Notes: generated from the sequence alone by a model not told the origin. A stretch of DNA of 64,000 nt from Candidatus Berkelbacteria bacterium RIFCSPLOWO2_01_FULL_50_28 (GCA_001774395.1 MEZX01000003.1:9903-73902); one strand, 5' to 3'. Counted from the stretch's first letter, positions 5,153 through 15,538 are shown. A program made the numbers and translations.

Positions 5153-5440
5153 TTGGCCTGTCGCGGAGGTTTAAAACCAGTGAGCAACCACGAACTTTGG
5201 ATGTGGATTTCCGGAGTGATCGGATTCAGTTGCTTCGTGGTTATTCACTTCACGAAGCTCTTAAAGAATCCTCTGTATGCAGGACTTGTACAGCTAGCGT
5301 CCAACGTTTTCGTTTTCGTCAGCTGGGGCTCGGCTTACATTAGCACTCGGGGATCATTCGCCCTTTTTGGAGTCATATTCCCGATTGTGACGGGGACCAT
5401 TACCATTCGCACGTTACTGCGAGCACGACGTCAATCATAG
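5153..5440 (+). CDS. small membrane protein (2-3 TM)
   Basis: AGGAGG sits 6 nt upstream of the TTG start. Hydrophobic segments are present, and a terminator follows. Confidence 0.4.
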   Translation: MACRGGLKPVSNHELWMWISGVIGFSCFVVIHFTKLLKNPLYAGLVQLASNVFVFVSWGSAYISTRGSFALFGVIFPIVTGTITIRTLLRARRQS

Positions 5441-5479
5441 GCGCGAAGAGGATTCCCCTTCGCGCCGCTTCTTTTTGCC
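5440..5479 (+). terminator. rho-independent terminator
   Basis: 9-bp stem ggcgcgaag/cttcgcgcc with loop aggattccc, then gcttctttttgcc. Confidence 0.7.
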
Positions 5480-5631
5480 TAGATTTCCCCTTTAAAATAA
5501 AGAACGAGTGTCCTTTCATGCGGCCGTTCCGTGGCCGCCCCATCTAGTTGCATTATTGGTTCTAACCCATAATCATTCCTAATTCACCATATGCTATATA
5601 TGGCATATGAGCCCAGAAGCCGAGCATTCCG

Positions 5632-5649
5632 TATGTGGTATACCACATA
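5632..5649. promoter_or_regulatory. perfect 18-bp palindrome TATGTGGTATACCACATA, candidate operator of the toxin-antitoxin module
   Basis: The sequence is its own reverse complement. It lies about 60 nt upstream of the antitoxin start. A second near-palindrome, CATATGCTATATATGGCATATG, is at 5590-5611. Confidence 0.4.
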
Positions 5650-5708
5650 AAGTGTATTTGGAGGTTTTTGGGTTGATCTTCGTTTGAAAAATCAATAAGA
5701 TTTACTCA

Positions 5709-5885
5709 ATGAGTCCGACACAGGCGAAAAACTTAGAGTCTCGTATTGACCGCTTGGAAAAGCTGGTGGATGTTGTGTTGCGACAAGACGATCAGGATTG
5801 GCTGAGCGACCCCAAACTCGTCGCCAAACTCGATAAAATTGCTGGCGATAAAACTCTAGTCTCCGAAAAAGCCGCCGGTATTTAA
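5709..5885 (+). CDS. putative antitoxin (58 aa)
   Basis: Small ORF below the 60-aa track cutoff, ending 5 nt before the RelE/ParE toxin start. Palindromes lie upstream. Confidence 0.4.
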   Translation: MSPTQAKNLESRIDRLEKLVDVVLRQDDQDWLSDPKLVAKLDKIAGDKTLVSEKAAGI

Positions 5886-5890
5886 ATCCG

Positions 5891-6157
5891 ATGCCGGAGC
5901 TTTTCTACAAGCCCGGCGCTCTGCGGGTTGTCAAAAAGTTTACTGCCGTAGAAATAACTGAATACAAAAATGTGCTGGCCGAAATCAAGCAGTTTCCTGA
6001 CGGCGGGAAATTTCTAAAGGGTTCGCTGAAGGGCTTGAGGAAGTGGAAATACAAAGTCCGGTCGATTCCCTACCGAATAGTTTACCTATTTGAAAATAAC
6101 ACGATTACGATAATCGCTGTTGGCAAACGCAAAGATTTTTACGAGCTGCTAAAGTAA
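5891..6157 (+). CDS. type II toxin, RelE/ParE family
   Basis: 88 aa. The C-terminal YRIVYLFENNTITIIAVGKRKDFY is the typical RelE/ParE signature. Confidence 0.75.
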   Translation: MPELFYKPGALRVVKKFTAVEITEYKNVLAEIKQFPDGGKFLKGSLKGLRKWKYKVRSIPYRIVYLFENNTITIIAVGKRKDFYELLK

Positions 6158-8043: not shown

Positions 8044-9237
8044 TTAGGCGCCAATCCCCACGAATGTTAGAGCCTTGCCGGCTTTATTGATGCGGCCAGT
8101 GCGGCCAATGCGGTGAATATAGTCGGCGTAGTTTTCCGGCGTGTCGAAGTTAATAACGTGCGAAACGTCGGGGATGTCCAGGCCGCGGGCGGCCACGTCC
8201 GTGGCAACTAATATTTCTACACGGTCTTCTTTAAAATCTTTCAGAGCGCGCTGGCGCTGGGACTGACTTTTGTTGCCGTGAATTGAAGCCGTGCCAAATC
8301 CTCGCTCCATCAGAGCGTCATTTAACTTTTGAACGCCGTGTTTTGTGCGGCCAAAAATGAGCACTTTCTTCGCGTCTTCTTGAAGCAAGATATTGTGTAG
8401 CAGGGTCATTTTGTGGAAAGTGTCGGTAAATCGAACGATGTCCTGGTCAACGTTTTGCGAAGTTTCACGTTTTTTGACCGAGATAGTTTCGGGGTTTGTG
8501 GTGAAGCTTTGAATCAGAGCCCGGACCTCGGGTGAAATGGTGGCGGAAAAAAACAGTGACTGGCGCACTTGCGGCAGTTTGGAGATGAGCTCCCGCACAT
8601 CATTAATAAAGCCCATGTCTACCATTCGATCGGCTTCGTCTAGGACGAGATTATTGAAATCGTGCAAGCGCAACGACCGTTGCCCAACGTGATCTTTCAG
8701 TCTTCCCGGCGTGCCGATAACAAACTGGGGGTTACGCCGCAGGGCGTTCAACTGAGTGCCGTAGCCGCTACCGCCCAAGCAAAGGGCCGAGTGGATATTC
8801 ATCCCGCGCGAAAAAGCTTTCAGTTCGTCGTCAATCTGAACGGCTAGCTCTCGGGTGGGAACAACTATTAAGGCTTTTTGTAGGCGATCTTTTAGCATCT
8901 TGTCGAGCAACGGCAGTAGAAACGCCGCTGTCTTACCGGTGCCGGTATCGGCAATGCCGATAACGTCTCGTCCGGTCATAACGATCGGGATAGCCTTATC
9001 TTGAATAGGGGTTGGGGTGACGTAGCCTCGAGCGACTACGCGTTCCAAGACAATTGGGGAAAGCACAAAATCCTCAAACCTGTGAGTTATCGGTTCTTGA
9101 GCTTGATCGGGCACGTCAACCGATTTGTTGACGTACATTGAGGAGTGGACACTCGAAAAGCGCGGTTGTCGCGAGCGACTTCCGAAACCTCTAGAGTTGC
9201 CAAAGCCGCGACTGCGACTTCGCATAGTATTATTCAT
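8044..9237 (-). CDS. DEAD-box ATP-dependent RNA helicase with an RGG/RS-rich N-terminus
   Basis: Q-motif, TGTGKTAAF (motif I), DEAD, SAT and HRIGRTGR motifs. Confidence 0.85.
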   Translation of the reverse strand: MNNTMRSRSRGFGNSRGFGSRSRQPRFSSVHSSMYVNKSVDVPDQAQEPITHRFEDFVLSPIVLERVVARGYVTPTPIQDKAIPIVMTGRDVIGIADTGTGKTAAFLLPLLDKMLKDRLQKALIVVPTRELAVQIDDELKAFSRGMNIHSALCLGGSGYGTQLNALRRNPQFVIGTPGRLKDHVGQRSLRLHDFNNLVLDEADRMVDMGFINDVRELISKLPQVRQSLFFSATISPEVRALIQSFTTNPETISVKKRETSQNVDQDIVRFTDTFHKMTLLHNILLQEDAKKVLIFGRTKHGVQKLNDALMERGFGTASIHGNKSQSQRQRALKDFKEDRVEILVATDVAARGLDIPDVSHVINFDTPENYADYIHRIGRTGRINKAGKALTFVGIGA

Positions 9238-9522
9238 TCTTATTACAGCCTTTCTACTGTTGGTTGGTTTTCCAACCGAGCTCCCGAACAGTAGTGCCGC
9301 CTATCTAACGAGTGGGGCAACAATCCGAAAGCAATTTAGCTTTACTTAGTCCTGGATTGAACCCGAGGAGTCACATAAAGTTCTGCAAGCATAACAGTAA
9401 TATCGGCGAATGTCCAGCTTAAAGGGGTTGGGTTGTGATCTTGTGGTCTATTGTAAAGCAAACTTTACCCCCACACCGAAATGAACTTCGGTGCGGGGCA
9501 GGCATTTTTTATCCCGCCTGCT

Positions 9523-9538
9523 AGGAGGCTTTATGTAA
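9523..9538 (+). promoter_or_regulatory. start-stop mini-ORF (AGGAGG-cttt-ATG-TAA) in the leader of the downstream operon
   Basis: A perfect SD is followed by ATG TAA. It is preceded by a hairpin plus T-run at 9474-9512. Confidence 0.3.
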
Positions 9539-9566
9539 AGGACGCTTTACAGTATACTTTTAGGTA

Positions 9567-10220
9567 ATGGACGGCAAAGTGTTGGTGATTTCCGATACCC
9601 ATTTGACTACAAAATTTAACCCGAAGAAATTCGAGTTGCTACGTGGGCTCATAAATTCGTGCGATCAAGTTGTTATTAACGGCGATTTTTACGAAGGGTT
9701 CGTCATTAATTTTTCCCAGTTCGTGACTTCGCCGTGGCAACAATTATTCCCCATACTGAAACAGAAAAAAGCAATCTATCTGCCCGGAAACCATGAGAAG
9801 AACCTTCCGGATCACGGCTACGAGCAGTTTTGCGACCAAGTTATGGAGAAGTATGAATTCGAGCAAAACGGGGTGACATTCCATGTTTTTCACGGGCACG
9901 GTGTGGACCGAACTTTCGACGTCCGGAATCCAAATTTTCCGAGATTCATCTCTGGGGTTGTCTCTCGGTCGGAAAAAATAGTTTGCGCAGTTTTTGGGCG
10001 TCGCTACACTAAAATCTACAAGTATGAAAACCAAATTCTGAAGAGATGGAAACTCAAAAACCTACCTTTGAATGACTGGCTGATCTGCGGTCACACCCAT
10101 TTAGCCGAACTTGACGAAACGGCAAGATTTGCCAATTCAGGCTTGTTTTTGTCAGAGAAGTTGGCGAGTTACTTAACAATTGAAAACGGTAAAATAGACC
10201 TTCACTACATCGATGGCTAG
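9567..10220 (+). CDS. metallophosphoesterase (calcineurin-like)
   Basis: Motifs ISDTHL, NGDF, GNHE and GHTH. Confidence 0.7.
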
Positions 10221-10821
10221 AGATTATTACGAAGTTTTAGGGGTTTCGCGTTCTGCCAGCGAGCAAGAGATAAAAAAGGCTTATCGAAGTAAGGCCCATA
10301 GACTGCATCCCGATAAAGGTGGGGATAAAGCGGCGTTTCAAGAAATAAACGAGGCCTACCAAGTTTTGAGTGATAAAAATAAAAAAGCCCAGTACGACCA
10401 GTTTGGCTCGGTCGGTCGAGGAGCCGGTGGATTTGGCGGCGCTTCACAACAGGGTGGAGGATTCGGTGGTTTTGACGGCTTTAATGTAAATTTTGGCGGC
10501 GGCCAGAGCCAGGGCGGTTTTGGCTCAATTTTTGAAGATTTATTTGAATCGGCTTTTTCGCAGGTTCAAGTCCAGCTCCAAATTTCGATCCCGCAAGCGG
10601 TTCTCGGCGATACTGTCCGTTTTAAAACTAATTTTGGCGACGAGGTCGAGTTAAGAATCCCGCCAGCTACCCAAGAAGGACAGTCCTACAGGTTCAGAGG
10701 TAAAGGTCAACAAACCCGTCGCGGCCGTGGCGATCTGACGGTAGTCATCCACATAGACATCCCCCGCCGCCTATCTCGCGAACAAAAAGAGCTTTACGAG
10801 CAACTGAAAAGAGCCTCCTAA
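10213..10821 (+). CDS. DnaJ-like J-domain protein lacking the zinc-finger domain (CbpA/DnaJ-like)
   Basis: J-domain with HPDK, a G/F-rich linker, and a C-terminal [27 protein letters not shown] that is DnaJ-CTD-like. Confidence 0.75.
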
Positions 10822-11172
10822 GTCAGCGGCCTGGGAGACCGCATCACCAACAGCTTTACGTTCATCGCTGAGATCGAAGGTCGCTTCAACCGCAACCAAC
10901 GGACGAATCGAAAGGATCGAAACGTTCAGAGCCATCCCCCGAAGGCGATAGCAAGACAAGCACTTGAGCGCTTGCCACCGAGTTTACTCGGCGTCGAGAG
11001 CCAGAGCTCTCACTCGGACGAGTTACAGATCGCTGTTTGGCTTAAACGATCCCCAGGCCTTTTGAGCGCGCTCTAGACTTTCCCAGAGGGGCTAGAGCAT
11101 TGTCAGGTACGCTTAAACCAACCGTATCAACGGTGAAATGGAAATCAAGTCTAAAAAGATTGACCACCCCGT

Positions 11173-12144
11173 TCAGGAAGTGGCCAATTTTGGCGAGATG
11201 GTTTGAGCGCAGAGCTGGCGGTACGCGCAGTATCGATCCATTACTCGCTTCTCAGTGGAGTTGGGTCTTCGACGGTAACGCCGACCACCTTTCCGACGAA
11301 CTGAGGGGTCTTGCAGTGAGGCGAGTAGCTGGCTCATCATCCCGCTGATCTGCACCTGAGTCGCCTTGTCACACAGACCTTTTTCGATCGCGTTGTGAAT
11401 AGCACCGCGAATCTTGCCGAGGTAGCTGCGTGGCAGGATGATGCTCCGATTCTGATTGAGTGTGAATCCAGCGATCTTGACTGGCCCGCGGTTCAGGTCA
11501 AGGATTTGGGTCTTACTTTCATGGATCACCAAACCAGCTTCGCGCATCAGGCCGTAGATGGCCTGGCGTTTCTTCTTGCCGATTCTCGTCATTGACGACA
11601 AGGTGATGTCGTCGAGATAACGGGTGTACGTCAGACCGTACTGCTTGCAGAGCTCTATGAGTTTGCTGTCGAGCAGGACTGCCACGTAGAGATTGTAGAG
11701 ATCGGGCGAGGCTGGTGCTCCAGTGAGCAGGCCGCCTTTGTTGTTAAGACAGTAGCGCTGGAGGAACTGTGTGACTACTTCAGATCCAAATAGATCGCGC
11801 GGCAGAGTTGGATCAAGCTCCAACAAGACCTGGACCAACTTCTCTTCGTCAACTGTTCCGTAAGCATCCTTGATGTCTAACAGCAAAAAGTACCTATTGT
11901 TTCGGTGCGGAAAGATGTTGGTGATTGACGAATGGCCTTTCCTGGCGCCGGTGGCCGCGGAAAGATCGGCTGGTAGCGAACGAAGGTAGCTAATCAGTGC
12001 GCTATGAACCTCTCGCATTTGAGCGTTAGGTGCGGAAATGTGACGACGTTTGGTTCTGCCGCCGAGAGGGTTCACATCCTTCAGAAAGAAGTGACGAAAA
12101 GCTGCTCCCTCGACAGGAGCGGCCAATATTGGTTTGTTTGACAT
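11173..12144 (-). CDS. reverse transcriptase, retron-type (putative)
   Basis: 323 aa. RT motifs: NRYFLLLDIKDAYGTV (motif 2), GLLTGAPASPDLYNLYV (motif 4), TYTRYLDDITLSS (YxDD), VIHESKTQIL (motif 6) and KIAGFTL (VTG-like). SITNIFPH is NAxxH-like. No maturase or endonuclease domain. AGGAG is 6 nt upstream of the ATG. Confidence 0.7.
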   Translation of the reverse strand: MSNKPILAAPVEGAAFRHFFLKDVNPLGGRTKRRHISAPNAQMREVHSALISYLRSLPADLSAATGARKGHSSITNIFPHRNNRYFLLLDIKDAYGTVDEEKLVQVLLELDPTLPRDLFGSEVVTQFLQRYCLNNKGGLLTGAPASPDLYNLYVAVLLDSKLIELCKQYGLTYTRYLDDITLSSMTRIGKKKRQAIYGLMREAGLVIHESKTQILDLNRGPVKIAGFTLNQNRSIILPRSYLGKIRGAIHNAIEKGLCDKATQVQISGMMSQLLASLQDPSVRRKGGRRYRRRPNSTEKRVMDRYCAYRQLCAQTISPKLATS

Positions 12145-12239
12145 CTGTTACTCCTGTTGTGGTTGATGTGAAAGGGCGAAGAATTCCAGCGAAGATGGGG
12201 CAGGGAAAGATTACGACTTACTCTTGGTTGAGTCAAGCA

Positions 12240-12326
12240 AAACTTTTTCAAGATGATATTCCCGGCCGGGTTCGTCTCTCTCGTGAACAAAGAGAGCTGT
12301 ACGAACAGCTAAAAAACTTAAGTTAA
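12240..12326 (+). pseudogene. displaced fragment encoding a DnaJ C-terminal tail (KLFQDDIPGRVRLSREQRELYEQLKNLS*)
   Basis: 16/21 residues are identical to the tail of the intact DnaJ-like gene, in frame to a stop. There is no convincing RBS. Confidence 0.4.
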
Positions 12327-13378
12327 CCGGCGTTGGCTTCGAGAAATTCCAGCACCACTTCTTCTTCGGGCAGCAAACCAACGGTATCTACTTCAAGAGT
12401 GCTGATAGTATCGACTTTGGGGCCATTTCCGCTCAAGAAGCTTTCCAAAACAAACGGGTGGACGTAACATTTACGACAAACGGTGGGCGTATTACCAAGC
12501 TCGGCGGCGACGGTTTTAATCGTGGCAGTGATCAACTTTTTGTTCTCGCGTTCGGTTTTGGCGCGCTGACACTCAGAGAGCAGAATCGCCGCCAAAATCG
12601 TCCCTCGCCAGGTACGAAAATCTTTGGCGGTGAACTCTTCGCCAGATGCATCTTGGATATACTCGTTGACATCTGCCGAATCGATACCGTGCAGGTTGTC
12701 ATCCTCGTCAATAAATTGAAATAGCTCTTGCCCGGGCAAGTCTTGGAGCCTGCCGATCAGGCGAGCCAGGCGGCGATCTTCGAACTCGACGGTGTGAAAC
12801 TGGCCGCTTTTACCCTTGAAGTTGATAGTGACTTTAATCGAGCCAACCTCGACGTGACGGTTACGCAAAGTGGTTAGGCCGTACGATTGGTTTTCTTTGG
12901 CGTACTGCTCGTTGCCGACGCGAATCATTGTTTTCTCGAGTAATTTAACGATTGTCGCTAAGACCTTTTCCCGTGGCAGGCCCTGCTTGTTCATGTCTTC
13001 GGACATTTGGGAGCGGATTTTTGGCAGAGCCTTGCCAAATTCGATTGTTTTTTCAAATTTGGACTGATCGCGAAATTTTAACCAGTCGGGATGGTAGCGG
13101 TACTGTTTGCGGCCTTTCTCGTCGGTGCCGATTGCTTGCAGATGGCTGTTAGCAACGGGCGAGATGACGACATTCTCCCAGCCCGGCGGCAGGACGAGCG
13201 AACGAATTCTCTCAAGCGTTTCTGGTTCGGTGATGTTTTCGTCTTCTTTTTTGTAATAGTAAAACTTGTCGCCGCGTTTAGCGCGTTTGATTGTTAGTTG
13301 GTCTTCGCGAAAGTAACGCAACCCGGCCTCTTTGGCCGAAGCGACCGGGTCGCCGGTAAGCTCAATGACGTTTTCCAT
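12323..13378 (-). CDS. DNA topoisomerase IB (poxvirus/eukaryotic-type)
   Basis: 351 aa. GKSGQFH, the catalytic region AELGNTPTVCRKCYVHP (active-site Tyr), and an N-terminal DNA-binding region. Confidence 0.7.
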   Translation of the reverse strand: MENVIELTGDPVASAKEAGLRYFREDQLTIKRAKRGDKFYYYKKEDENITEPETLERIRSLVLPPGWENVVISPVANSHLQAIGTDEKGRKQYRYHPDWLKFRDQSKFEKTIEFGKALPKIRSQMSEDMNKQGLPREKVLATIVKLLEKTMIRVGNEQYAKENQSYGLTTLRNRHVEVGSIKVTINFKGKSGQFHTVEFEDRRLARLIGRLQDLPGQELFQFIDEDDNLHGIDSADVNEYIQDASGEEFTAKDFRTWRGTILAAILLSECQRAKTERENKKLITATIKTVAAELGNTPTVCRKCYVHPFVLESFLSGNGPKVDTISTLEVDTVGLLPEEEVVLEFLEANAG

Positions 13379-13479
13379 TGCGGTTAGTGTAGCACATCAG
13401 ATTCGAGACTCGACTTGGCTGATTGGGGCGGCAGTTCGTTGGACAAACGGTTGCCCGAGCTTGGGGCCCGGGCAATTGG

Positions 13480-14010
13480 TCATTCATCGATGATCTGGCC
13501 GATTACGATCTTTTTTTCGAGGCACTCGTCTTTAGAGGTGAAAAGGAAATAACCGGTCAGGATTTTCCCATCAAGAACTGGTTCAATCCAGCTCTCATCC
13601 TCTTGCCACATCTCGTGGTAGGGGATGTTGTGACGCTTCCACCACTTTGGTGCCATCTCTTCGCTTTCAGCTGGATCGCCCTCCCACTTTTCAGCCTCGT
13701 AGACGTAGCATTTCTGATTCCATCTCTTCTCCGGTGCCACGTCTGAGAAGTAGAAATACAGAATTGCCACCAGCCGAACCTTGATGAGGTCAGTGCCAAG
13801 TTCGTCTCTAGTTTCACGAACAACGCAATCTTCCGGCGATTCGTTCAGCTCTTCCTCGGTTTTTCCACCAGAGAAGTTCCACTTGCCTTCCCCAAAACCT
13901 CGTTTCTTCATTGCCAAGTTCACCAGATCGCCCTTGCGAATGATGCCCAGAGTGGTTTTGCGCAAACTACCAACATGAGCCCTGCGATGCTCTGTAAGGT
14001 TCATAGTCAA
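13480..14010 (-). CDS. NUDIX hydrolase
   Basis: Nudix box GGKTEEELNESPEDCVVRETRDELG. Confidence 0.7.
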   Translation of the reverse strand: MTMNLTEHRRAHVGSLRKTTLGIIRKGDLVNLAMKKRGFGEGKWNFSGGKTEEELNESPEDCVVRETRDELGTDLIKVRLVAILYFYFSDVAPEKRWNQKCYVYEAEKWEGDPAESEEMAPKWWKRHNIPYHEMWQEDESWIEPVLDGKILTGYFLFTSKDECLEKKIVIGQIIDE

Positions 14011-14046
14011 GTTGTAACCAAAAAAACTAAGAGAAACAATATCGGT

Positions 14047-14082
14047 TTATAAAAAATAATGCGCGGCCACCGGGGGCCGCGC
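14047..14082 (-). terminator. rho-independent terminator for the minus-strand gene ending at 14096
   Basis: 8-bp GC stem gcgcggcc/ggccgcgc. On the minus strand it is followed by a U-run (plus strand ataaaaaataat). Confidence 0.65.
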
Positions 14083-14095
14083 AAAGGAGTCGGGC

Positions 14096-15538
14096 TCAGA
14101 CAGTATTGCCAAGCAGGTATTCGATTGCCTGCTTAGCACCGTATGAGTCGTTCGGACCATCCATCAGGAACGGGAGAAAATCCAGATTTCCCGCAGTTAC
14201 GACCGCGGGCTCTCCCTTGTTGCCTAATCTGGCCGTGACCATCAGACCATTACAGAGACATCCCCTGCCGACGGTATCTTCGAGTTTCCCGCCCTTAGCG
14301 GTATACTTCTTCTCCGGTTCGGCGGCGCATCTGTAGCCGATGGAACCGTCTGGCTTCTCGTACAGAGAGACCAGAGCGCACTGATTACAGACGCGATCTC
14401 TCTTCCTGAAGACCTCTGGGTCAGCGATCGTCCCTTCCAGCTCTACAACTTGAAAAGGATATCCTGTTGGAGAGATGTCCATATCAGTACGAACTTTCAA
14501 TGTGCCATTGTACCCCTGCCTCCGAACTTCGCGGCGAATTTCAGGATCCATTCCGGAATCGTCACTGAAAGCAAACATAGAGCCGACTTGGATGCCCATT
14601 GCGCCGACCGACAGTGCCCAGCGGAGTCTTTCCGGTGAGGCGCAAGAACCACCGATATAGAACCGCACACCGAGTGCGACGAGCTTGGCATAGTCGACAA
14701 CATCCTTTTCGCCGTAGACAAGAATTTGTTCGCCGTCAGCGTTTATCGCGGGGGTTCTCGGCGGAGCGTTATGCCCGCCAGCCGTTGGCCCTTCAACGAC
14801 AAGAGCGGCGATATCTCCTTCGATCTTCGTCGCAAAGAGAATGGCAAGGGCGGTCGAGGCAACGATGGGAATGAATCCCGGCTTCTTCATCGGCGGCAAT
14901 TCGCTTCCGAAGAACTTTTTGGGATCAAAACTCATCGCATACTTCTTGGTCTTTCCGTCGATACCGGCGTAATCTACGTCGTAGTGGACTACTCTTCCTT
15001 CGGCGATCGCGTCGATCACGTCAGGGATTTGTCGCGGTATGCCAGCACCCACGGTTACGAAGTCCACACCAGCCATCATCGCACCAAGGATACCGCACAT
15101 CAGTGACATGGAAATTTTCGCCATGTAGTTGATGCTGACCGGATTACTGTGTCCCTCTTTCGCTAAGTAGACAAAGGCGTAGTTAGCGCAAATTGTCAGA
15201 GCGATCAAGCGAGCCGGGGGTTTGACAGTAAAAACTGGTTTACCCTTGTACTTTGCTCCAGCCGGAATCCCGCCTTCGACGAAATACTCGTCAAGCACCC
15301 CTTTGGCCATATTCTGGAACGGAAAAGTTGCCAAAGCGCGTCGAAGGTGTCCACCTAGATCGCCTTCTTGCAAAAGCCGCGCTAGCAGAATATCTGCACC
15401 GACACCCGACACGGTACCAAGTTGGCCAAGCATCGAGACGATTCGTGCTAGCGGCCAGATCGAGATATTGAATCCCATCCCTCCCTGGATAACCCGCGGG
15501 AGGCAGTGGACTTCTGTCGAACTGTTAAGTTTCTTCAA
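14096..15538 (-). CDS. nitronate monooxygenase / FabK-like enoyl-ACP reductase II family (NMO, 2-nitropropane dioxygenase-like)
   Basis: IQGGMG and VVEGPTAGGH motifs. 480 aa. Visibly GC-rich. Confidence 0.65.
   Translation of the reverse strand: MKKLNSSTEVHCLPRVIQGGMGFNISIWPLARIVSMLGQLGTVSGVGADILLARLLQEGDLGGHLRRALATFPFQNMAKGVLDEYFVEGGIPAGAKYKGKPVFTVKPPARLIALTICANYAFVYLAKEGHSNPVSINYMAKISMSLMCGILGAMMAGVDFVTVGAGIPRQIPDVIDAIAEGRVVHYDVDYAGIDGKTKKYAMSFDPKKFFGSELPPMKKPGFIPIVASTALAILFATKIEGDIAALVVEGPTAGGHNAPPRTPAINADGEQILVYGEKDVVDYAKLVALGVRFYIGGSCASPERLRWALSVGAMGIQVGSMFAFSDDSGMDPEIRREVRRQGYNGTLKVRTDMDISPTGYPFQVVELEGTIADPEVFRKRDRVCNQCALVSLYEKPDGSIGYRCAAEPEKKYTAKGGKLEDTVGRGCLCNGLMVTARLGNKGEPAVVTAGNLDFLPFLMDGPNDSYGAKQAIEYLLGNTV

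Follow-up and report, generated by a model that had tools for sequence, protein, structure and literature searches.

Retrons are currently understood as three-part toxin-antitoxin-like defense systems and are mined as genome-editing tools. In a 64,000-nucleotide stretch of DNA from the candidate phyla radiation (CPR) bacterium Candidatus Berkelbacteria bacterium RIFCSPLOWO2_01_FULL_50_28 (hereafter, the window), a gene for a retron-type reverse transcriptase (RT) lies between an intact dnaJ-like gene and a displaced, co-oriented copy of the dnaJ tail, with a topoisomerase IB gene (topIB) next to it. Which of these elements belong together, and how did the RT come to lie at the 3' end of a housekeeping gene? 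A first-pass annotation of this DNA, which had placed the RT and the two tails where we find them, was right in what it observed, in calling the RT retron-type, and in its account of a split-off tail, but not in the site of the noncoding RNA (ncRNA), in topIB as a partner, or in reading the duplicated tails as a signature of the RT. We propose that the locus is probably a minimal retron consisting of the RT and a downstream ncRNA of ~245 nt, with no effector in cis, which was brought by recombination into a hotspot at the 3' end of dnaJ. The features of the locus are as follows.

10213 to 10821, plus strand: intact, short dnaJ-like gene (open reading frame [ORF] of 202 aa, with a J domain, a G/F region, and a partial C-terminal domain)
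10753 to 10821, plus strand: replacement dnaJ tail that now ends the gene (first copy of the direct repeat, with its core at 10768-10810)
10817 to 11063, minus strand: candidate retron-like ncRNA unit D, 3' of the RT (fold, covariation, and CM R1)
Within ncRNA D, minus strand: 5' arm of the closing stem from 11059 and hairpin core at 11020-10925 (coordinates checked)
Within ncRNA D, minus strand: UCAGCG at 10871-10866, end of the 3' arm at 10829, and CGCUGA at 10828-10823
11121 to 11148, minus strand: promoter-like TTGATT-16 nt-TACGGT ahead of ncRNA D (putative, read from the sequence)
11159 to 11188, minus strand: terminator-like hairpin and T run across the RT stop codon (terminator scan)
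11173 to 12144, minus strand: retron-type RT of 323 aa (profile and PDB matches)
12145 to 12254, minus strand: RT leader, unstructured, with an AGGAG ribosome-binding site (fold z and sequence)
Within the RT leader, minus strand: weak promoter-like TTGACT (12236-12231)-17 nt-TAATCT (12213-12208) (sequence)
12255 to 12326, plus strand: displaced original dnaJ tail fragment, ~23 codons and a stop (tblastn and direct repeat)
12323 to 13378, minus strand: topIB (Pfam domains Topoisom_I and Top1B_N_bact)

The RT contains RVT_1 as its sole Pfam domain, together with the motifs RYLDD, SITNIFPH, and KIAGF. Profile comparison with PADLOC, NCBIfam, and PDB confirmed its retron-type character, with only retron models and structures as best matches. 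All of the top 25 RT matches in PADLOC were retron RT models (the best being RT_II-A at 2.5e-33, with RT_III-A and RT_VI also present), NCBIfam returned retron_St85_RT (8e-32; 110 bits, which is below the cutoff of 235), and 13 of 13 PDB matches were retron RTs, led by that of retron Ec86 (6.5e-17). The motifs are variant spellings of those of retrons, with N-I-F-P-H for NAXXH and I-A-G for VTG; NIFPH aligned to NATPH of Ec86 and KIAGF aligned to KVTGL, and among 14 homologues N..H was invariant and I-(T/N/A)-G was conserved. The variants N-I/V-x-x-H and I-T/A-G align to NAXXH and VTG, respectively. Scores against many retron type models were similar and low (60 to 114 bits), and no type-specific RT model stood out among the PADLOC profiles. 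The RT is retron-type but fits no defined retron type. Two other kinds of retroelement were rejected. For a group II intron, the RT scored far below the cutoff of model TIGR04416 (36.7 versus 300 bits; 2.6e-9), and no intron RNA family in Rfam was found at 10700-12500. For a diversity-generating retroelement (DGR), 10000-13500 contains no notable repeat apart from the dnaJ tail, and the reported RT matches include no DGR model. The NCBIfam models Drt2 and Drt3a gave 32 bits (cutoff, 390) and 33 bits (cutoff, 200), respectively, with E values of ~5e-8.

An msr/msd ncRNA had been expected in the 178-nt gap upstream of the RT, where folding was to reveal a1/a2 repeats, but this gap folds like its shuffles. 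The region 12145-12345 had a fold z of -0.01, with 91 of 200 shuffles folding as well, and the gap yielded no Rfam or CM match. Of the features noted there, the ctctct/agagag hairpin and the GC palindrome (12261-12270) do exist, but within the remnant of the dnaJ tail. A direct repeat also exists, but it comprises 9 nt (aattccagc; 12182-12190 and 12345-12353) rather than 10 nt at 12184-12193, and a repeat of this kind does not exceed chance expectation. Relatives carry an upstream ncRNA unit (unit U; 9719-9969 in L011 and 1420-1668 in L013), which is missing from the window.

The structured RNA lies instead downstream, in a ~245-nt segment 3' of the RT and on the RT strand (11063-10817; fold z = -5.1). 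This unit, ncRNA D, has a long closing stem (dG of -32 to -34 kcal/mol), four covarying hairpins, and the invariant motifs UCAGCG and CGCUGA, the second of which is located 1 nt from the dnaJ stop. Compensatory changes affect 10 of the 30 pairs of the hairpin core, a level matched by none of 500 shuffles, and 96% of the hairpin-core cells are paired, compared with 34 to 50% when the partners are slid. The closing stem also covaries across related units in the consensus structure. In 19 of 23 motif-defined units, the best pairing partner of the 3' arm is the 5' region of the same unit, and the mean dG is -29.4 kcal/mol for own-arm pairing versus -19.5 kcal/mol for mismatched arms. CM R1 scored 105.8 bits on ncRNA D (E = 2.9e-23) and matched all five RT loci with an RT identity of at least 61% (e.g., L011, whose RT is 63% identical to that of the window); the 16 RT-less dnaJ loci gave no CM match at an E value below 0.1, and no Rfam family matched ncRNA D. 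The same motif pair was found beside RTs of 40 to 46% identity (L015-L019, L047-L049, L055, L065, L069, and L074). RNAs built in this way are confined to the vicinity of RTs of this clade, with one to three units per RT, located upstream and/or downstream, each a contiguous RNA of ~210 to 290 nt. Their interior is a multi-hairpin junction rather than a single long msd stem, and the closing stem looks like the a1/a2 inverted repeats of retrons. At the inner end of the 5' repeat, where retrons have a conserved branching G, UUAAGC/UUAGC follows the 5' arm in the window, in L012, and in units U and D of L011, and it is absent from unit U of L013, unit D1 of L014, and others.

To judge from its flanking signals, ncRNA D seems to be transcribed from a promoter of its own that follows the RT terminator. 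The TTGATT-TACGGT signal is a weak consensus match that was not flagged by a consensus promoter scan; in an alignment, TTGAyw-N16/17-TAnnnT occupies the equivalent place in L012, L011, L014, and L013. A hairpin and T run also follows the RT stop in L011, L013, and L014. Loss of the upstream unit, the lack of an effector, and the rarity of the element (15 homologues at E values no higher than 1e-10 among 5.8 billion proteins) would suit an inert relic, i.e., an RT cassette that is a decaying passenger with no present function. That reading is very improbable, however. The RT ORF is intact and 100% identical on 23 contigs from many samples, a dN/dS of 0.13 against the RT of L012 shows purifying selection, and compensatory changes keep ncRNA D paired.

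A unit of TopIB, ncRNA, and RT had also been suggested. In such a three-part retron, topIB would supply the effector, the 178-nt gap would hold the ncRNA, and the whole would integrate into dnaJ. Consistent with this model, topIB is directly upstream of and co-oriented with the RT in both the window and L011, and a topIB of the same orientation lies two genes downstream of one distant RT (L088; 35% identity). No topIB accompanies the three RTs most closely related to that of L088, however, and topIB of the window falls outside the inserted DNA because the displaced dnaJ tail sits between it and the RT, with the TAA of the tail fragment (12324-12326) and the topIB stop (12323-12325) sharing 2 nt. 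In L026 and L027, dnaJ and topIB are directly convergent without an RT, which is the empty site that the first-pass annotation had suggested looking for, whereas in L013 the cassette and tail fragment are located beside other genes. The two genes are not conserved together: topIB was present at only 2 of 47 clustered RT loci and was absent beside about 55 related RTs. It is lacking in L013, L015-L019, and L102-L104. TopIB remained unmatched in PADLOC, and the gap assigned to the ncRNA has the fold z of -0.01 given above. The three-part model is thus largely refuted and retains hardly any credibility. Judged from gene order, topIB is the ancestral convergent neighbor of dnaJ and not part of the retron. 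Neighbor clustering, gene tables, and Pfam scans of neighbors revealed no gene that recurs beside the 47 related RT loci, and no effector domain is fused to the RT among its Pfam domains. Apparently, no effector gene accompanies this RT clade.

The dnaJ-like gene is the anchor and target gene of the insertion. Its product matched Pfam DnaJ (5.5e-24) and, over profile positions 78-152 only, DnaJ_C; orthologues were found in 16 related genomes, some with and some without the RT. The displaced tail (plus strand) encodes DIPGRVRLSREQRELYEQLKNLS* and was recovered by a tblastn search of the dnaJ tail against the 64-kb window (E = 8e-6). The top direct repeat of 10000-13500 is this same tail (10768-10810 versus 12273-12315; 43 nt, 81% identity). 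As had been noted, the two copies differ mainly at synonymous positions: synonymous changes account for 7 of the 8 mismatches in the 43-nt repeat (p of ~0.001 in a rough calculation assuming that ~30% of random changes are synonymous), the last 17 codons contain 10 synonymous and 5 non-synonymous nucleotide differences, and four pooled comparisons of intact and displaced tails yielded 57 and 16, respectively. The junction between the displaced tail and topIB in the window is the same as that of the empty site in L026, and the original tail still abuts topIB as in L026 and L027, supporting the earlier view that the insertion detached the resident tail of dnaJ and provided a substitute. The duplication is no signature of an RT element, however, since RT-less L020 and L021 also carry displaced dnaJ tails, in these cases around other cargo, an observation that the first-pass annotation had itself named as a refutation. 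Cargo at this hotspot includes the retron, an NMO-family oxidoreductase, and secreted or membrane proteins, and the displaced fragments begin at dnaJ residues of about 133, 168, 178, and 190. Across the genomes compared, the anchor gene is conserved and the cargo varies, the orphaned 3' fragments keep the orientation of the anchor and join at different positions, and the copies have diverged from genome to genome.

The direct repeats of the dnaJ 3' end on both sides of the cargo, and the reuse of one gene in several genomes, could also point to site-specific cassettes that carry a copy of the tail and enter an att site in the dnaJ 3' end by means of a tyrosine or serine recombinase encoded elsewhere; a XerC-like integrase adjoins two distant RT loci (L015 and L016). 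We regard this explanation as quite unlikely. No recombinase ORF was found in 10822-12254, no integrase in or beside the cassette, and no tRNA or tmRNA near the insert; the fragments have four boundaries rather than one core, and the repeats are diverged over their entire length, with a longest exact core not above 8 nt. The tail duplication fits dnaJ-anchored recombination with foreign DNA and not site-specific integration, given the scattered junctions and the predominance of synonymous differences. Homology-facilitated illegitimate recombination leaves orphaned 3' ends (PMC5361080). From the scars at this locus, we infer a route that would have started with dnaJ and topIB converging stop to stop. 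The donor would have been DNA of a related genome carrying a dnaJ 3' end and the RNA-RT cassette, with dnaJ used as the homology anchor and illegitimate joining at the other end. The working dnaJ tail would thereby have been replaced and the resident tail left as a fragment beside topIB, and RT-less relatives would have taken up other cargo at the same hotspot. Later deletions could be an alternative source of the variable fragment lengths.

In the minimal retron that we favor, the RT would bind the hairpin core of the ncRNA, prime on the 2'-OH of a G at the inner end of the 5' arm, and copy part of the 3' half of the ncRNA into msDNA. With no effector encoded in cis, the complex of RT, RNA, and cDNA may itself be the active agent or regulator, or it may work with a partner encoded elsewhere. 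Its role is likely phage defense. This is the weakest step of the proposal, and it is a guess because the systems described are tripartite and this retron would lack an effector. The RT and ncRNA might instead form a functional pair without classical branched msDNA, producing long or repetitive cDNA (as with DRT2 and DRT9) or low-level regulatory cDNA (as has been reported of type VI retrons). The two-component organization without an effector, the several RNA units on either side of an RT, the multi-hairpin interior, the complementary UCAGCG and CGCUGA motifs, which could circularize or template-jump, and the presence of RT_VI among the top matches are in line with this reading, as type VI retrons are reported to yield no abundant msDNA (10.1101/2025.10.22.683967). 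It is nevertheless unlikely, given that the RT resembles retron RTs much more than those of DRT2 or DRT3 (32 to 33 bits) and that the terminal closing stem and adjacent UUAGC of several units would correspond to the classical retron priming geometry, as in Ec86. A tentative extension of the minimal-retron reading, possible but doubtful, is that the CPR clade represents a new retron type without a protein effector, in which one to three separately transcribed ncRNAs would serve each RT, the cDNA or ribonucleoprotein would be the output, and the UCAGCG/CGCUGA pair would be mechanistic (a pseudoknot or a priming or termination switch), with no counterpart in described retrons.

An RT that functions with one or more independently transcribed template RNAs alone, in ultra-small CPR bacteria, would widen the known retron architectures, and an effector-less lineage prompts one to ask what function a retron serves when no effector is present. 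The clade also offers compact new RT/ncRNA pairs and an RNA family defined by a closing stem, a hairpin core, and two invariant hexamers. The hotspot suggests a form of gene gain without obvious mobile-element machinery, in which the end of a housekeeping dnaJ gathers foreign cargo and the displaced tails form a readable trail. It also calls for caution with gene neighborhoods: adjacency would mislead here, as the conspicuous TopIB is no more than a long-standing neighbor of dnaJ.

Like known retrons (Ec86/Eco1 of type II-A, St85/Sen2, Ec107, and type VI), this system has a retron-clade RT whose motifs align to NAXXH, YxDD, and VTG, and the RT is paired with a contiguous structured ncRNA whose ends would form an a1/a2-like inverted-repeat stem. 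Unlike in the classical msr-msd-ret operon, the ncRNA is 3' of the RT, from which a terminator-like hairpin separates it, and a promoter-like signal of its own precedes it. Tripartite retrons (types I to XIII) differ in having an effector gene, which is lacking here, and the RT falls outside the defined types. The host, a CPR bacterium, also sets the system apart from described retrons; DGR RTs are said to make up ~80% of the RTs in CPR (PMC8632793). DRT2 (UG2) and DRT9 (UG28) similarly have two components, an RT and a structured ncRNA, with no separate effector, but the RT clade here is different (Drt2, 32 bits versus a cutoff of 390). DRT2 and DRT9 are associated with long or repetitive cDNA synthesis. 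As in tRNA/tmRNA islands, the target 3' end is duplicated on both sides of the insert and the gene stays intact, but there is no integrase and no identical core, the junctions are variable, and the cargo is only 1.4 kb. Prophage phiR73, which is integrated at selC and carries retron Ec73, belongs to the same group of elements. Rhs, CDI, and T6SS effector-immunity loci likewise combine an anchor, variable cargo, and co-oriented orphaned 3' fragments of the anchor, and their displaced 3' ends derive from other strains and are attributed to homology-facilitated illegitimate recombination (PMC5361080). Unlike in those loci, the anchor here is a housekeeping co-chaperone gene rather than a polymorphic toxin, and the cargo is unrelated to the function of the anchor.

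The reverse transcriptase (RT) gene lies between two copies of the 3' end of dnaJ (here, tails) and next to a topoisomerase IB gene (topIB). This layout, including the tail remnant, had been described in the first-pass annotation and was confirmed at the locus:

10213-10821, plus strand: short dnaJ-like gene (open reading frame, ORF)
11173-12144, minus strand: RT, 323 aa (ORF)
12255-12326, plus strand: dnaJ tail remnant ending in ...DIPGRVRLSREQRELYEQLKNLS*, between RT and topIB
12323-13378, minus strand: topIB (ORF)

The TAA of the remnant and the topIB stop codon share 2 nt. The window belongs to a Candidatus Berkelbacteria (CPR) genome, and a protein of the bin RIFCSPLOWO2_01_FULL_50_28 matches the RT at 100% identity. 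Copies of the RT protein with 100% identity occur on 23 contigs from many samples, and the arrangement is the same throughout. Of the direct repeats in the region, the strongest is the tail pair (43 nt, 81% identity), in which 7 of 8 mismatches are synonymous; the nucleotide differences across the last 17 codons number 10 synonymous and 5 nonsynonymous. The intact gene encodes a 202-aa short form of DnaJ that combines a J domain and a G/F region with just the final half of the DnaJ C-terminal domain; the zinc-finger region is absent. This short form is common to all 16 related genomes, which were recovered with the C-terminal half of dnaJ as the query. Elsewhere in the window, a ParE-like toxin gene (approximately 5891-6157, plus strand) has a small upstream partner (an adjacent 58-aa ORF) and adjoins a bipA/typA-like GTPase gene, according to the gene table of the identical contig L001.

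The RT is intact and constrained and, as had been proposed, of the retron clade. Its sole Pfam domain is RVT_1. The best 25 PADLOC matches are all retron RT models (e.g., RT_II-A, 2.5e-33; RT_III-A, 9e-31; and RT_VI, 5e-30), every one of the 13 PDB matches is a retron RT, and the NCBIfam match to retron_St85_RT (8e-32) is under that model's cutoff. Other NCBIfam models scored just 36.7 bits (group II intron RT; cutoff, 300) and approximately 32 bits each (Drt2 and Drt3a). In an alignment with Ec86, NIFPH lies opposite NATPH (the NAXXH motif) and KIAGF opposite KVTGL (the VTG motif), and equivalents of both motifs are kept in 14 RT homologs. When a best-fitting retron type was sought for the RT and its relatives, none stood out (60 to 114 bits versus many types); the RT is a retron-clade enzyme outside the defined types. 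Comparison with the 87% identical copy at the related locus L012 gave a dN/dS of 0.13, indicating purifying selection. A phage origin was rejected, with no close relatives found in INPHARED (best, 29 to 32% identity) or IMG/VR.

A retron RNA (msr/msd) had been expected in the 178-nt gap upstream of the RT gene. Folding of 12145-12345 (minus strand) was no better than that of shuffles (z = -0.01), and the gap had neither an Rfam nor a covariance model (CM) match, which together rule it out as the noncoding RNA (ncRNA) site. A direct repeat reported there is present, but it is 9 nt long, its coordinates and length had been misstated, and it is no more than expected by chance. The structured RNA was found downstream instead. 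On the RT strand, the 350 nt between the RT and dnaJ stops fold with z = -5.1, and this stretch is conserved at every locus with an RT at least 61% identical to that of the window (L011 to L014). It contains a retron-like ncRNA of approximately 245 nt (here, unit; RNA and RT together, cassette) that is conserved, covarying, and specific to this RT clade:

11063-10817, minus strand: ncRNA unit (fold, covariation, and CM)
10871-10866, minus strand: invariant UCAGCG, unit motif
10828-10823, minus strand: invariant CGCUGA, directly 3' of the stem and 1 nt from the dnaJ stop

The unit has a long closing stem, in which the 5' arm GGCCUGGGGAUCG... pairs with ...CGGUCUCCCAGGCC, and a core of four hairpins with compensatory changes. 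Both sides changed in 10 of the 30 core pairs, and 0 of 500 shuffles attained this level; 96% of cells are paired, versus 34 to 50% with the partners slid. The G-U pairs of the unit are consistent with the RT strand. A CM of the core found units only next to RTs of the window type, with no match at a significant score in the rest of the 64-kb window and none at E < 0.1 among 16 RT-less dnaJ loci. UCAGCG and CGCUGA are exact reverse complements and recur as a pair in approximately 20 units of other loci. They may pair as a pseudoknot or an alternative helix; because neither motif ever varies, they offer no scope for covariation. In all loci compared, the RT stop is followed by a hairpin and a T run, 3' of which lies a promoter-like TTGAyw-N16/17-TAnnnT, read by eye and weak by consensus. 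The ncRNA would be transcribed independently of the RT, and 2'-OH-primed reverse transcription would convert its 3' half into a putative msDNA.

Of the 18 nt at 10843-10860, in the 3' part of the ncRNA, 16 are complementary to the stretch of the RT gene that encodes the ITNIFP (NAXXH) motif (11908-11925). Antisense pairing with the RT mRNA was rejected: the complement occurs in the window and L012 and is absent from L011, L013, and L014, and, being so limited, is probably due to chance. Two ORFs of the RT-dnaJ spacer, of 41 aa (11042-11167) and 54/62 aa (10771-10959), were likewise rejected as small effectors. The 41-aa ORF is interrupted by a stop in L012 (read from the alignment), the equivalent L011 spacer has no ORF of at least 60 aa on the RT strand, and covariation shows the spacer to be RNA.

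The RNA family extends beyond the window. L011 and L013 have a second, paralogous unit upstream of the RT, in the canonical position (CM E value, approximately 2e-7; fold z = -4.3), and L014 has two tandem units downstream (1206-1483 and 1617-1861); in the window, the upstream unit was lost and only the downstream unit was kept. Units of the same design (an A-rich lead, a unit-specific closing stem, YCUCAGCGR, and CGCUGA) also adjoin RTs just 40 to 46% identical:

Upstream of RT: L017/L018, L047-L049, L055, L065, L074
Two to three in tandem, upstream of RT: L015/L016 (L015, approximately 5361-5981; L016, 4978-5982)
Downstream of RT: L019, L069

The arrays of L015/L016 occupy the 1-kb gap from a XerC-like integrase gene to the RT; several template RNAs per retron-type RT are unusual. 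Both arms of the stem vary from unit to unit with complementarity kept. For 19 of the 23 motif-defined units, the best partner of the 3' arm is the 5' region of the same unit (mean, -29.4 kcal/mol versus -19.5 kcal/mol for mismatched arms), and a chance motif match at another place in the window gave the result expected of a negative control. Rfam 15 contains no such family and returned nothing for the window region, L011, L014, L016, and L017 except tRNAs elsewhere.

TopIB had been raised as a possible retron component. This idea did not hold: topIB lies outside the tail-bounded insert, and at the RT-less loci L026 and L027, dnaJ and topIB are convergent, stop to stop, providing the empty site that the first-pass annotation had called for in related genomes. 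The empty sites, with the absence of TopIB from other RT contexts, rule it out as an effector. In L011, TopIB adjoins the RT because the insertion site is shared, and an old tail fragment again lies between them. In L013 (a 2.9-kb contig), the cassette and tail fragment adjoin genes for an acidic 89-aa protein and a secreted protein, with no topIB between or beside them. The contexts of more distant RTs are unrelated, and clustering of neighbors within 3 kb of 47 RT loci revealed no recurrent family; the largest cluster was a permease (four related loci), and TopIB occurred at two. At L088 (3944-6540), an overlapping 229-aa ORF and then a co-oriented topoisomerase IB gene lie downstream of a 35% identical RT; this adjacency is probably a coincidence because it is not kept in the RT's three closest relatives (L102 to L104), which lack TopIB. 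Fused effector domains were sought in longer RT relatives, and Pfam revealed none except a DnaG-type zinc ribbon in one (P0015). The clustering, context, and domain results thus suggest that RTs of this clade have no effector in cis. A putative defense-type role would be performed without an adjacent effector.

The dnaJ-topIB site is ancestral, and in Berkelbacteria-like genomes, the 3' end of dnaJ is a hotspot of repeated insertion, with or without an RT. The region 3' of dnaJ is highly variable among the 16 related genomes, none of which has the RT. The flanking tails had been read as the signature of an RT element; however, RT-less L020 and L021 also contain displaced tails, those of L020 around a 352-aa secreted protein. 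Hotspot cargo was found at three loci:

L020, 7295-8567
L021, 7283-10121
L011, 11340-13163

The cargo (the 352-aa secreted protein, a small membrane protein, and an NMO-family oxidoreductase) is followed in each case by a displaced dnaJ tail with a different start residue; fragments start at approximately dnaJ residues 133, 168, 178, and 190. Three tails occur in L011, where the arrangement is dnaJ, NMO, fragment B, RNA-RT-RNA, fragment A, and topIB. The NMO gene of the L011/L021 type travels with the fragment starting at residue 133, and the NMO-family genes of the window (14096-15538) and L011 (11617-13113) are approximately 40% identical and differently positioned around dnaJ-topIB.

The proposal that the insertion supplied a replacement dnaJ tail was borne out. 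In every case, most differences between the intact and displaced tails are synonymous (synonymous to nonsynonymous, 10:5, 15:3, 17:6, and 15:2); therefore, the copies diverged as working genes in different genomes and did not arise by local duplication followed by decay. Cassette GC content (52 to 55% versus approximately 50% in the flanks) is not distinctive, so a compositional anomaly was rejected; this unremarkable composition would agree with a related donor. The RT has diverged far more between the window and L011 (dN, 0.32) than have the flanking TopIB (0.06) and DnaJ (0.10), which suggests fast evolution or cassette exchange. Site-specific integration at dnaJ is the weaker alternative; the insert contains no recombinase, and 9000-14500 contains no tRNA or tmRNA target. 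The tail pattern is consistent with dnaJ-anchored recombination in which the far end was joined illegitimately. This route was also put forward to explain the orphaned 3' ends at T6SS, Rhs, and CDI loci (PMC5361080).
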